Shown piece after piece: positions 2,398-4,648 of a stretch of DNA of 64,000 nt. Both the position numbers and the translations under genes were made by a program. Origin of the DNA: Candidatus Uhrbacteria bacterium (GTDB lineage: Bacteria > Patescibacteriota > Patescibacteriia > 2-12-FULL-60-25); contig JBAXJG010000002.1 of assembly GCA_037137975.1 (NCBI GenBank), positions 40,524 to 104,523 of the forward strand, written 5' to 3'. Positions within the stretch are counted from its first letter, which is position 1. Each line of letters begins with the position of its first letter. Under the pieces are notes generated by a model. The model saw only the letters and a program-made list of their open reading frames with translations. It ran no database searches and was not told where the DNA came from.

Positions 2398-3093
2398 ATG
2401 TCTCTTTCTTTTTCGATGTTCGATCGTGTTTCTGGAATCCGTTATGGAATGTCCGAACGATCGGATGGTTCTCTACGCCTCAATCAACCATGCACTGAAC
2501 AGAATCGACGTGCGTATCTTGAGCCGCTAGATATTCCGTTTGAATCACTTGTATCAGCGGATCTTGTGCATAAAACGCATATTCATGTAGCACAGGCCGT
2601 TGATACGAGTCATACGATACTTGCATGCGATGGATTTGTTACGGCTGAAACAGGGATCACATTAACGGTAACAGGGGCTGACTGTTTTCCTGTCTTTGTT
2701 GTTGATCCTGTGCGACGAGTGATTGGGATCGTGCATGCAGGATGGAAGGGGATTGCGGCTGGGATTGTTTCAAAACTCGTTCAAGAAATGGAAAAACTTG
2801 GTGCGACAAAAGAGAATTTGTTATTTGGAATAGGTCCCGGAATACGCGCCTGTCATTTTGAAGTCAAGGAAGATGTGAGTTCAGTGTTTCCGGATAAAGA
2901 ATCGATTCATAATTCGCATATTGATTTGCCAGCGAGTATCACAAGGCAGTTGGAAACTTTGGGGATTGCTCGTACGCAGATTGAGGATTGTGGATTGTGC
3001 ACTGCTTGTTTATCAGATCGATATTTTTCTTATCGACGTGATAAGCCTGAAATTATTGAGGCGATGATGGCCTATATTCGGTTGGATAAATAA
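2398..3093 (+). CDS. pgeF: YfiH/PgeF family (DUF152, laccase-domain) peptidoglycan editing factor
   Basis: Family-typical motifs TGADCFPVFVVDP and GIVHAGWKG, plus a C-terminal CTAC..RYFSYRRD. Confidence 0.8.
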   Translation: MSLSFSMFDRVSGIRYGMSERSDGSLRLNQPCTEQNRRAYLEPLDIPFESLVSADLVHKTHIHVAQAVDTSHTILACDGFVTAETGITLTVTGADCFPVFVVDPVRRVIGIVHAGWKGIAAGIVSKLVQEMEKLGATKENLLFGIGPGIRACHFEVKEDVSSVFPDKESIHNSHIDLPASITRQLETLGIARTQIEDCGLCTACLSDRYFSYRRDKPEIIEAMMAYIRLDK

Positions 3094-3095
3094 AA

Positions 3096-3123
3096 ACGGT
3101 CGTTGCGCGAGCGCGACGACCGT
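3096..3123 (-). terminator. GC-rich hairpin terminator between convergent pgeF and the 2H gene
   Basis: ACGGTCGT(T)GCG / CGC(G)ACGACCGT forms a stem of about 12 bp. On the minus strand TTTTTA follows it. Confidence 0.7.
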
Positions 3124-3126
3124 GTG

Positions 3127-3777
3127 TTAGATGAGGATCTCTTCGATCTTGCCCCACTCGCCCATGCGCGCGAGCACGACGCGCGAGGCCGAGCTGATGA
3201 GCGCTTCCTGCGTGGGCTTGAACTTCTTGAAGCCCTTCGTGTTCGCGGCCAGCGTGATGTGCGGGAGATAGTCCTCGCCCACGAGCGTGTGGCCGAACAC
3301 TCGCTTGTTCGTGCAGAGCTTGCGCTCGCGCTGCTGCCGCTTCTCAGACATCTCAGCGATGCGACGCTCGAGCGACGCTTCGTCTTCGGCGGAGGGGTCG
3401 ACCCAGGCGCTCAGCGCGAGGCTCATGCCGTGCGCGTCCATCAGGCGGCCATGCTTCTTGGTTCGGTCGATGTTCCAGAACAGATACTGTTCATTGTCCT
3501 GGTACGGCTTGATGTCGAGCATGTACAGGAGCAGCTCTCCGGCACGGTTTGAGACGAGGAACTCGTTCAGCTTCGCCACCAGCTTCTCTGCGACGCTGAC
3601 GGGCATCTGCTTGAAGTTCCGCGCTTGGTAGAGCGTGATGTGCACGCCCTCGGGCTTCACGCGATATTCTGCGTGACGCACGCCCTTGGTATCGGTAAGC
3701 TGTGCAGCCGCTTGTGTGGCGTACACATCGGGGAGAATGAGTACTCCGAGAAACCCACTGAGAACGCGTTTCGCCAT
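3127..3777 (-). CDS. Exported 2H-superfamily phosphoesterase (LigT / cyclic phosphodiesterase-like), GC-rich island gene
   Basis: Two H-x-T-x motifs (GVHITLYQ and LPHITLAAN) are about 125 aa apart. N-terminal signal-like MAKRVLSGFLGVLILPDVYATQAAA. AAGGAG sits 5 nt upstream of the ATG. GC is about 61% versus 43-48% in the flanks by hand count. Confidence 0.55.
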   Translation of the reverse strand: MAKRVLSGFLGVLILPDVYATQAAAQLTDTKGVRHAEYRVKPEGVHITLYQARNFKQMPVSVAEKLVAKLNEFLVSNRAGELLLYMLDIKPYQDNEQYLFWNIDRTKKHGRLMDAHGMSLALSAWVDPSAEDEASLERRIAEMSEKRQQRERKLCTNKRVFGHTLVGEDYLPHITLAANTKGFKKFKPTQEALISSASRVVLARMGEWGKIEEILI

Positions 3778-3826
3778 ACCATCTCCTTTGTACGGGTATG
3801 TAGAGGCTGGCTGTGCTTAACAAAAA

Positions 3827-3849
3827 GCGGCCGTTTTGTCAACGGCCGC
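3827..3849 (-). terminator. Rho-independent terminator of the methyltransferase gene
   Basis: GCGGCCGTT / AACGGCCGC 9-bp stem with a 5-nt loop. On the minus strand TTTTTG follows it, directly after the stop at 3854. Confidence 0.8.
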
Positions 3850-3853
3850 ATCT

Positions 3854-4648
3854 CTAGATTTTACGAGCTCTTAACCCAAGAAACATTGGGATTTCTGCTC
3901 TGGCTACGTTTTCTGCTTTTGCCTTTGGTCCAGAGTCACTGGTTTTGTTTGAAACCCATTCTTCGAGTGCATCTACGACGAATCCGTATTTTACGAGTTC
4001 GGTTATGTAGACTGAGAGCGGTCGGTGATAGGAATACGTTTTTTCTTCTGGCGCGGATCCTGGATGCATCACGATCGGCATCGCGTAGCTTGAAAGATAT
4101 TTGTCTACGCGACGGTACTGGAGTTTTCGCTCTTCATCCCAACCCCATCCACTTTGGCGTGGTTGACGATAAGCGGGGTGGTTCATTGTTATTACGAAAC
4201 TTCCACCGGTTTTTAAGACTCGCGCCGCATCAGCGAATACAGCTCCGAGTGGATCAATATTTTGGATGGCGAGATTGCAGACGATCCCATCAAACGAAGA
4301 TGGTTGATAGAGAATAGCAAAACCGATCGCATCTCCAACCTGGAAGCGTGTGTTGTTTGGTGCCCCTTTTTTTGCAGCCTGAATCAAGCTGGGTGATGCA
4401 TCGAATCCTTCAATGAGTCGGCTTGTTTCTTTTGCGAGGCGTACCGAAAATGCTCCTTGTCCACAGGCAAGGTCGAGGTAATGTCCGCCTTTTACAGGCT
4501 TCAAGAGACGTTCGGCGCCAGGAAATACGATATCTCGTTGGAAGTCGCCACCTTCTTTTCCCATGTAGTCTTGATACCATCCGGCGACGTTTTCCCAACC
4601 GCGTTTTTGCTGTATAGGTCTTGGCATGTGCGTATGGTACACTTTCAA
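3854..4648 (-). CDS. Class I SAM-dependent methyltransferase
   Basis: Motif I LDLACGQGAFS and post-I/II pattern VGDAIGF...FDGIVCNLAIQNI. The start may be the internal MPRPIQQ at 4627. Confidence 0.75.
   Translation of the reverse strand: MKVYHTHMPRPIQQKRGWENVAGWYQDYMGKEGGDFQRDIVFPGAERLLKPVKGGHYLDLACGQGAFSVRLAKETSRLIEGFDASPSLIQAAKKGAPNNTRFQVGDAIGFAILYQPSSFDGIVCNLAIQNIDPLGAVFADAARVLKTGGSFVITMNHPAYRQPRQSGWGWDEERKLQYRRVDKYLSSYAMPIVMHPGSAPEEKTYSYHRPLSVYITELVKYGFVVDALEEWVSNKTSDSGPKAKAENVARAEIPMFLGLRARKI

Follow-up and report, generated by a model that had tools for sequence, protein, structure and literature searches.

In a 64,000-nt stretch of a Candidatus Uhrbacteria genome (GenBank assembly GCA_037137975.1, contig JBAXJG010000002.1, positions 40,524 to 104,523 of the forward strand; hereafter the window), a single minus-strand gene stands out from its surroundings by its base composition. 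Its product, P0001, is assigned here to the two-histidine (2H) phosphoesterases. A first-pass annotation made from the sequence had read the gene as a horizontally acquired cassette encoding an exported enzyme. Our analysis makes it probable instead that this is a resident, separately transcribed gene of Patescibacteria encoding a cytoplasmic 2H phosphoesterase, and that its high G+C content at third codon positions (GC3) is conserved in the genus and is not the scar of a recent transfer.

Results

A GC-rich island confined to one gene

Region 3096-3849 has a GC content of 60.3% compared to an average of 47.0% for the window. The highest-GC 651-nt stretch of the window (0.614; mean 0.470, sd 0.042) starts at position 3101, and the composition of the island lies +3.4 sd from the window mean. 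The open reading frame (ORF) itself has an overall GC content of 0.61, with 0.63, 0.37 and 0.82 at the first, second and third codon positions, respectively, and its excess is found entirely at third positions; the flanking genes, PgeF and a methyltransferase gene that we call MT1, have a GC3 of 0.33 and 0.42. The borders of the island are sharp since the ends of the neighbouring genes keep a low GC3 (0.36 and 0.34 over their final 50 codons), and they fall within around 30 nt of the 2H transcription unit. In the genome as a whole (1.21 Mb, median GC3 0.47), the 2H gene ranks 11th of 1126 ORFs in GC3. The GC profile and the comparison of codon positions with the neighbouring genes bear out the GC-rich single-gene island described in the first-pass annotation, whose hand counts are exact (73/120 G+C at 3121-3240, 29/60 at 2941-3000 and 26/60 at 3901-3960).

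High GC3 is shared by syntenic orthologs

We compared the window's own genome (G000) with other species of the genus (G001-G005) and with metagenome contigs. Orthologs are found in the same slot in three of the five congeners (G002, G004 and G005) and in seven contigs (L022-L024 and L026-L029); eight lineages are counted in addition to the genus representatives. Within the gene order MT2-small-MT1-2H-PgeF-NUDIX-SecA, a class I methyltransferase lies upstream of the slot and PgeF converges on it. PgeF is the syntenic partner in all relatives, and MT1 is found upstream of the 2H gene in most of them.

The GC3 of the 2H ortholog is 0.80-0.91 in 11/11 lineages, where it is the highest or equal-highest of all ORFs of the locus; the medians for the remaining ORFs of these loci are 0.43-0.71. 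For a genome-scale view, we used 228 reciprocal-best-hit pairs between G000 and 400 kb of G004, for which GC3 is correlated (r = 0.60). No pair deviates more than the 2H gene in G000 (0.82; mean 0.48, sd 0.07), and in G004 the gene is near the top (0.89; mean 0.69, sd 0.07). The GC3 outliers of G000 that have G004 orthologs (2H, PurH, C4:24455 and C6:12255) are also outliers in G004.

Identity at 4-fold degenerate sites between the 2H gene and its G004 ortholog exceeds the composition expectation by 0.10, compared to a genome mean of 0.083 +/- 0.069. The silent sites of the gene are saturated and show no sign of recent exchange with G004. With the same high GC3 in orthologs despite saturated silent sites, the composition is therefore an equilibrium property and not an un-ameliorated scar. 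Distant homologs from other families of the class (around 30% identity) have ordinary GC3 (0.47 in L050 and 0.30 in L051). Thus, the high GC3 belongs to the gene of this clade and not to the wider protein family.

Along the 2H gene of the window, GC3 rises by quarter from 0.65 through 0.85 and 0.87 to 0.94. The first quarter is also the lowest in the lower-GC relatives L022, L024, L026 and L023, the rise is confined to the last quarter in the L029 ortholog, and the GC-richer relatives have no first-quarter dip.

The gene has its own predicted promoter and terminator

The AAGGAG ribosome-binding site pointed out in the first-pass annotation is confirmed (3788->3783, 5 nt ahead of the ATG), and the orthologs carry GGAG/GAGG-type boxes at the equivalent position. 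Alignment of the upstream regions of the orthologs further delineates a predicted promoter composed of a perfect -35 box TTGACA (3842->3837), an extended -10 TG (3822->3821) and a -10-like TAAGCA (3819->3814). Its 17-nt spacer ends in TTTTGA or TTTTGT across orthologs. The pattern TTGAC[AG]-17 nt-TAnnn[AT] is found in 11/11 orthologs, 34-43 nt ahead of the start codon, and it suggests promoter activity upstream of the 2H gene. A strict consensus scan of the window missed this promoter, the -10 box being weak.

Two stable hairpins stand at the ends of the island. The upstream hairpin (3849->3827; -20.5 kcal/mol, z -4.6) matches the terminator scan on the minus strand. The downstream hairpin (3123->3096; -17.3 kcal/mol on the minus strand, -21.7 on the plus strand, z -4.4) starts 3 nt past the PgeF stop codon. 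Taken together, the hairpins range from -17 to -22 kcal/mol with z from -4.2 to -4.6, and 0/200 shuffles are as stable. A hairpin with a T-run directly after the 2H stop codon is found in 8/11 orthologs. With its own conserved promoter, as predicted, and its own terminator, the gene would therefore form a compact, self-contained transcription unit (Table 1).

The first-pass annotation had described the gene as insulated by these two hairpins. Both are indeed minus-strand terminators, but the upstream one ends MT1 and overlaps the 2H promoter. The two elements are superimposed in such a way that the -35 TTGACA is the loop of the hairpin and the T-run is the promoter spacer. In orthologs with MT1 upstream, the terminator stem is often kept, with arms that have changed yet are still complementary (GCGGCCG/CGGCCGC vs CAGCCG/CGGCTG). 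In G002, G005 and L027, where the upstream gene is divergent, the stem is absent and the promoter is kept.

These shared junctions bear on a technical explanation, in which a fragment of a GC-rich relative was spliced into a lower-GC contig during assembly or binning. The assembly does consist of 53 contigs of heterogeneous GC. Nonetheless, the gene order and the composition contrast recur in at least 10 assemblies made independently from a variety of samples and sources, and the junctions themselves are functional elements held in common with the neighbours (the -35 box within the MT1 terminator loop, the 2H terminator directly past the PgeF stop). We consider the chance of such an artefact to be negligible.

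Table 1. Coordinates of the 2H gene, its expression signals, coding motifs and flanking genes in the window
Feature	Position	Strand	Basis
PgeF/YfiH family gene (Pfam Cu-oxidase_4), convergent with 2H	2398..3093	+	Pfam E 1.8e-53
Intrinsic terminator of 2H gene, hairpin then UUUUUAUUUAU	3096..3123	-	Fold; between the convergent 2H and PgeF genes
Coding sequence of 216-aa 2H phosphoesterase P0001	3127..3777	-	ORF, AlphaFold2 model, Foldseek, homologs
Codons of H173-I-T175-L, distal HxT motif	3250..3261	-	Conservation in both alignments (A1, A2)
Codons of H46-I-T48-L, proximal HxT motif	3631..3642	-	Conservation in both alignments (A1, A2)
Codons of residues 5-16 (VLSGFLGVLILP), hydrophobic N-terminal segment, beta-strand 1	3730..3765	-	DSSP, YjcG alignment
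Shine-Dalgarno AAGGAG	3783..3788	-	5 nt before ATG, read from sequence
Predicted 2H promoter	3814..3842	-	Ortholog upstream alignment
Intrinsic terminator hairpin of MT1 gene, 9-bp stem then TTTTTG	3827..3849	-	Fold, terminator scan
Class I S-adenosylmethionine methyltransferase MT1, upstream of 2H	3854..4648	-	Pfam Methyltransf_31/25/11

P0001 is a 2H phosphoesterase

Both HITL motifs noticed in the first-pass annotation are present, one in each half of the protein (residues 46 and 173). We assessed their conservation in an alignment of 18 sequences of the clade (A1) and in one of 63 homologs (A2). H46 and H173 are invariant in both, as is P172 next to H173; T175 is at least 90% conserved in both and T48 in A1, and over the two alignments both threonines are nearly invariant.

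The AlphaFold2 model, built from the 18-sequence alignment, has a predicted local distance difference test score (pLDDT) of 94.4 and a predicted template-modelling score of 0.90, and it displays a bilobed alpha+beta fold with two facing antiparallel sheets. The top Foldseek matches in the Protein Data Bank (PDB) are LigT/ThpR (5ldm), the Deinococcus cyclic phosphodiesterase (CPDase) drCPDase (5h7e), TT0787 of Thermus (1iuh) and Acb1 (7t27), with a plant CPDase and archaeal LigT-like proteins also found. All 16 chains at E <= 1e-3 are 2H enzymes, which make up all of the top 20 or so and nearly all of the top 49 matches. In a viral structure library, only 2H proteins matched, at lower TM-scores than in the PDB.

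Sequence comparisons place P0001 in a small family. Its 17 close homologs are 40-68% identical to it, a pair of them carrying the names Patescibacteria or Candidatus Uhrbacteria, and phmmer against representative proteins gives 54 matches at E <= 0.001, the query included. In Pfam, P0001 itself touches LigT_PEase (E 0.032, first half) and Acb1 (E 0.08, second half). Scanned singly, the 63 phmmer-linked homologs match PF13563 (2_5_RNA_ligase2) in 36 cases, with a best E of 2e-12, PF02834 (LigT_PEase) in 35 and DUF1045 in 27; the Acb1 model reaches E < 0.01 for 7/63. A sequence search of the PDB with P0001 alone gave chance matches only, and the family profile matched Bacillus subtilis YjcG (2d4g; E 2.5e-4) over the N-terminal half only.

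The model, the structural matches and the family profiles support the 2H assignment made in the first-pass annotation, and we regard membership of the superfamily as secure on this predicted structure and sequence evidence. Within the superfamily, P0001 appears to be a new lineage-specific member of a small subfamily, closest by profile to the YjcG / '2_5_RNA_ligase2' group. Accordingly, a family that was previously a 'hypothetical protein' of Patescibacteria with no Pfam call can now be named as 2H phosphoesterase.

At the nucleotide level, the 12-mer AGCGTGATGTGC is identical at 3251-3262 and 3632-3643, overlapping the codons of each HITL motif. The repeat may echo the internal duplication of the 2H fold, or else like residues and a like codon bias produced it by coincidence.

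The hydrophobic N-terminus is a core strand

The exported location proposed in the first-pass annotation relied on the hydrophobic N-terminus, and it is not supported. Residues 5-16 are a DSSP strand in the AlphaFold2 model (block-mean pLDDT 86-98), and they correspond to strand 1 of the core. In the profile alignment, 'SLGIVILPDEE' of the P0001 family pairs with the N-terminal 'KYGIVLFPSKK' of YjcG. The segment is conserved in the 63 homologs, with nearly invariant G8 and G11 followed by PD, and in many of these homologs it is preceded by polar extensions of 10-30 residues. A Sec signal peptide is rejected on the basis of the structure model and the N-terminal strand homology; cleavage would take away a core strand. 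P0001 is thus predicted to be cytoplasmic.

Candidate causes of the high GC3

Codon bias linked to expression was considered using, as a proxy for highly expressed genes, 30 ORFs from the ribosomal-protein/EF-Tu/EF-G clusters on C13 and C6. The genome does show such a bias, with a GC3 of 0.55-0.66 in genes for ribosomal proteins, EF-Tu and RNA polymerase, and the proxy set reaches only 0.5-0.66. The proxy set favours CCA, GGT, CGT and GAA. The 2H gene uses CCC/CCG and GGC, with CCA in 0/7 and CCC in 5/7 proline codons, GGT in 0/12 glycine codons and GAG at 65%. Among the tRNAs of the genome, no tRNA-Pro(GGG) was found for CCC, the main proline codon of the 2H gene. Expression-linked bias was therefore rejected: the gene avoids the CCA, GGT and GAA of the proxy set, and its main proline codon has no matching tRNA-Pro(GGG).

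Overlapping coding does not account for the composition either. The antisense ORF 3103-3552 exists, and synonymous-codon shuffles give antisense frames at least as long; codon usage by itself suffices to keep the codon-aligned antisense frame open. The first-pass annotation had already taken such shadow ORFs as by-products of high GC, and the lengths agree with that view. In 5/11 orthologs (L026, L024, L021, L019 and L020), the sense +2 frame stays open from one end of the gene to the other and exceeds its length in most synonymous shuffles (p 0.00-0.21 each). As a conserved gene it was discarded, the frame being broken in the window copy (94 codons).

Selected mRNA structure was similarly rejected as the cause. 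The z values of the minimum free energy of the mRNA relative to synonymous shuffles are -0.85, +0.62, -1.69, -1.25, -0.57, -0.11 and -2.61 for seven orthologs (mean around -0.9), a weak trend at most. In addition, the ends of the flanking genes are not GC-enriched, which argues against ordinary recombination tracts and hence against simple allele replacement and locus-wide GC-biased conversion.

The excess of GC3 is gene-specific, transcript-bounded and evolutionarily stable, a lasting oddity that none of these candidates explains. A paper on horizontal gene transfer in Patescibacteria (PMC12455944) does not address conserved GC3. One broader reading, which we put forward tentatively and consider less likely than its opposite, is that the 2H gene is one of a conserved class of stand-alone Uhrbacteria units in which a transcript-bounded process brings silent sites near G/C saturation, independently of both genome GC (GC3 from 0.47 to around 0.8 across the genus) and translational codon preference. 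More speculatively, selection could act on mRNA composition, the message being hardened against A/U-specific endoribonucleases that create 2',3'-cyclic-phosphate RNA ends, the very ends that its enzyme would handle. Gene-targeted GC-biased conversion, or some different process, may be responsible instead.

A candidate reaction and the gene neighbourhood

Homology suggests that H46 and H173 serve as the general acid and base in an attack on a phosphodiester that is cyclic or 2'-linked. The substrates of the enzyme would be 2',3'-cyclic phosphates, carried by mononucleotides or by RNA 3' ends, which it would hydrolyse in the cytoplasm to a phosphomonoester; this product would supply nucleotide salvage or house-cleaning. 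Such cytoplasmic 2',3'-cyclic phosphate hydrolysis is, by analogy, the most likely reaction of P0001 because cellular LigT and CPDase-type enzymes are its best structural matches.

In the window, two NUDIX genes and PgeF/YfiH are neighbours with roles in nucleotide house-cleaning or salvage, to which the neighbourhood in relatives adds Ham1/ITPase, MazG, pyrophosphatase and guanylate kinase. Such a neighbourhood fits organisms obliged to scavenge nucleotides. Nonetheless, the functional association is weak because the genes are separate transcription units.

Other features of the locus and genome

Gene content between the methyltransferase and PgeF varies, marking this slot as a small turnover hot spot. 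L029 carries both the 2H gene and a guanylate kinase (L029:3056-3574), and a 229-aa gene of unknown function is found just upstream of the 2H gene in G002, G005 and L027, replacing MT1 in G002 and G005.

In several orthologs, CCUC or CUUCC is found 15-25 nt upstream of the GGAG/GAGG Shine-Dalgarno box, with which it could pair (in the window, the 5' untranslated region is 3778-3813). RNAalifold on the 5' untranslated regions of the orthologs, which are poorly alignable, gave no consensus structure, and an Rfam scan of 2800-4100 gave no match.

The promoter-like pattern TTGAC[AG]-17-TAnnn[AT] is found upstream of 6/38 high-GC3 ORFs compared to 43/977 others (Fisher p 0.008), where it often reads TTGACAAAAC. 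These counts are for ORFs of the window's own genome outside C1:7,000-125,700, with high GC3 defined as >= 0.70 and with approximate ORF starts.

Outside the window, the same genome (49.5% GC) has a region of around 48 kb with a GC content of up to 0.73 (C1:63,500-112,000), among whose ORFs are N-termini like those of a serine recombinase and a tyrosine integrase. This region may represent an integrated element, or a chimera that arose in binning or assembly. Around 80 more sliding-window segments with GC >= 0.58, several of them overlapping, are dispersed over the genome. The PurH-like gene C14:3521-5068 is an extreme GC3 outlier (0.82 here, 0.92 in G004), and its 4-fold-site identity to G004 is 0.22 above expectation, near the 99th percentile of the genome, which hints at more recent sharing within the genus. 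Finally, the ORF C2:194267-194605 has 40% amino acid identity to its best hit in G004, yet 26/27 of the 4-fold sites that the two share are identical; either a segment shared recently or a conserved non-coding element mistaken for an ORF may account for this.

Discussion

A resident gene or a recent arrival

The 2H gene is found in 4/6 species of the genus, and its wider family in 32/401 genomes of the class. As far as sequence comparison can tell, the gene is old in the genus despite its variable slot.

Several observations weigh against the view of a resident cytoplasmic 2H phosphoesterase. Two of the five congeners (G001 and G003) lack the gene, and none of the other 31 genera in the family has it at strong similarity. 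The slot is variable too, G003 having a guanylate-kinase gene in place of 2H (L018:8270-8787). The 2H tree is largely congruent with the tree of the flanking genes. Nonetheless, it pairs the window with L022 (92/90), whereas the flank tree pairs the window with L029 (99), and the 2H data weakly reject the pairing of the window with L029 (p value of the approximately unbiased test, p-AU, 0.025; L029 has a long branch). Some within-genus allele exchange may thus have taken place at this gene. On the protein side, MAKR followed by a hydrophobic run and AAA-Q gives the N-terminus a superficial likeness to a Sec signal, P0001 scores below threshold in Pfam (14.8 bits vs a cut-off of 23.3), and the proposed substrate is derived from the superfamily and from a loose neighbourhood of separately transcribed genes.

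The patchy distribution would suit the recent acquisition of a cassette that came from a foreign, GC-rich donor and codes for an exported enzyme. So would the outlying composition of the gene in both window and genome, the presence of its own ribosome-binding site, terminator and predicted promoter, and the many other GC-rich islands of the genome, one of them of 48 kb with recombinase genes. A recent event is contradicted, however, by relatives at 46-68% identity that have the gene in the same slot with the same GC3, and by the saturated silent sites. The first-pass annotation had itself named orthologs with the same GC at the same locus in relatives as evidence against acquisition, and these were largely found, apart from the two congeners that have no copy. 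We found neither direct repeats bracketing the gene nor mobility genes among its neighbours, PHROG and PADLOC gave no match for the protein, and the presumed export signal is a core beta-strand. Taken together, we consider a recent foreign origin very improbable.

A second scenario is allele replacement within the genus: the lineage of the window lost GC genome-wide and then took its 2H allele from a GC-richer syntenic congener, which would give rise to the marked contrast at this locus. The sampled congeners are all GC-richer (locus GC 0.51-0.63 compared to 0.47-0.49 here), and the 2H codon usage resembles that of the other GC-rich genes of the genome. The grouping with L022 in the 2H tree, with the p-AU noted above, is in favour of it, and the excess 4-fold identity of PurH suggests that such exchange may occur in the genus. 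Against this, the best homolog is only 68% identical, and 4-fold identity is near expectation for every pair, including that with L022 (0.56 observed vs 0.42 expected), and equals the genome average for G004. The borders within around 30 nt of the transcription unit and the flank ends of ordinary composition are unlike homologous-recombination tracts. Every GC-richer relative also has a GC3 excess of +0.2 to +0.3 over its local median; because they carry the excess too, a replacement in one lineage is inadequate as an explanation. We therefore see allele replacement as unlikely, although it is the foremost of the rival readings, and we retain the view of a resident gene whose composition is held in the genus.

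Seen in this way, the 2H gene is a counter-example to reading deviations in GC and codon usage as recent horizontal transfer, the deviation here being stable and common to diverged orthologs. If what holds GC3 at 0.8-0.9 in certain genes of these very small genomes is mRNA-level selection or a targeted bias of conversion, bacterial genome composition would have gained a new factor, and the same force would be a source of false genomic-island calls in genomes of the Candidate Phyla Radiation. The enzyme itself is of an ordinary kind within the 2H superfamily.

Comparison with known systems

The fold-level identity of P0001 to any solved 2H structure is around 10-16%. By sequence profile, the best PDB match is YjcG of B. 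subtilis, with an alignment that runs from the N-terminal strand through the first HxTL motif. Both proteins are small and single-domain, YjcG has no leader before strand 1, and neither carries the extended HxTxxF and HxTxxR motifs (PMC4201822). P0001 differs in being around 45 residues longer, in having a charged two-helix insert between the lobes (residues 126-161 or so, deleted in P0017 and P0018) and in its own conserved positions Q51, F100-W101, H116 and G162.

By structure, the best match is the RNA 2',3'-CPDase ThpR/LigT of E. coli (4qak, 5ldm; Foldseek E 1.4e-4), for which the TM-score of 5ldm is 0.57 when scaled to the query and 0.69 when scaled to the target length, and both proteins have two HxT motifs on facing beta-sheets. 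ThpR uses histidine general acid/base catalysis to convert a 2',3'-cyclic phosphate into a 2'-phosphomonoester, a mechanism that we also expect of P0001, and its subfamily is defined by the extended motifs HxTxxF and HxTxxR, of which the arginine is essential (PMC4201822). In P0001, the catalytically essential Arg130 and the base-stacking Phe48 of ThpR are replaced: its motifs read HITLYQ (Q51 invariant in A1) and HITLAA (A178 invariant in A1). P0001 is thereby excluded from the ThpR subfamily and, with this arginine and phenylalanine missing, its substrate contacts must differ. The nearly invariant F100-W101 and H116 are candidates for these contacts, with W101 and H116 as candidate residues for transition-state stabilisation and base binding.

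Phage Acb1 (7t26/7t27; PF23474), which counters the cyclic oligonucleotide-based anti-phage signalling system (CBASS), also has the 2H fold in common with P0001 (Foldseek E 7e-4), and its Pfam model covers the distal HxT region of P0001 at 13.1 bits compared to a cut-off of 27. P0001 could be imagined as an enzyme of the Acb1 or 2'-5' phosphodiesterase type, breaking down second messengers that are cyclic oligonucleotides or 2'-5'-linked, by which the episymbiont would counter host or phage defence or reset its own system; we judge this reading improbable. The fold matches do include the Acb1 structures and viral 2'-5' phosphodiesterases, the Acb1 model is touched by a few family members, the slot is variable, and the protein evolves fast (46-68% identity in the genus compared to around 70-79% for the neighbours). 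LigT and CPDase nonetheless match better than Acb1 (TM-score by query length 0.57 vs 0.44), and P0001 is around 70 residues longer, with its helical insert. No CBASS, type III CRISPR, Thoeris or Pycsar genes were found among the Pfam-annotated neighbours, and the PADLOC and PHROG scans of the protein, already mentioned, were empty. With a sub-threshold PF23474 match and a conserved chromosomal locus, the gene being cellular and syntenic, P0001 was not assigned to Acb1.

Within the amelioration framework, in which atypical islets are read as transfer, the 2H gene has the appearance of such an islet: it is a single gene in a variable slot, it brings its own expression signals, and its GC3 and codon usage deviate. 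Unlike un-ameliorated islets, its deviant composition is common to orthologs at the same locus, and its silent sites are saturated.

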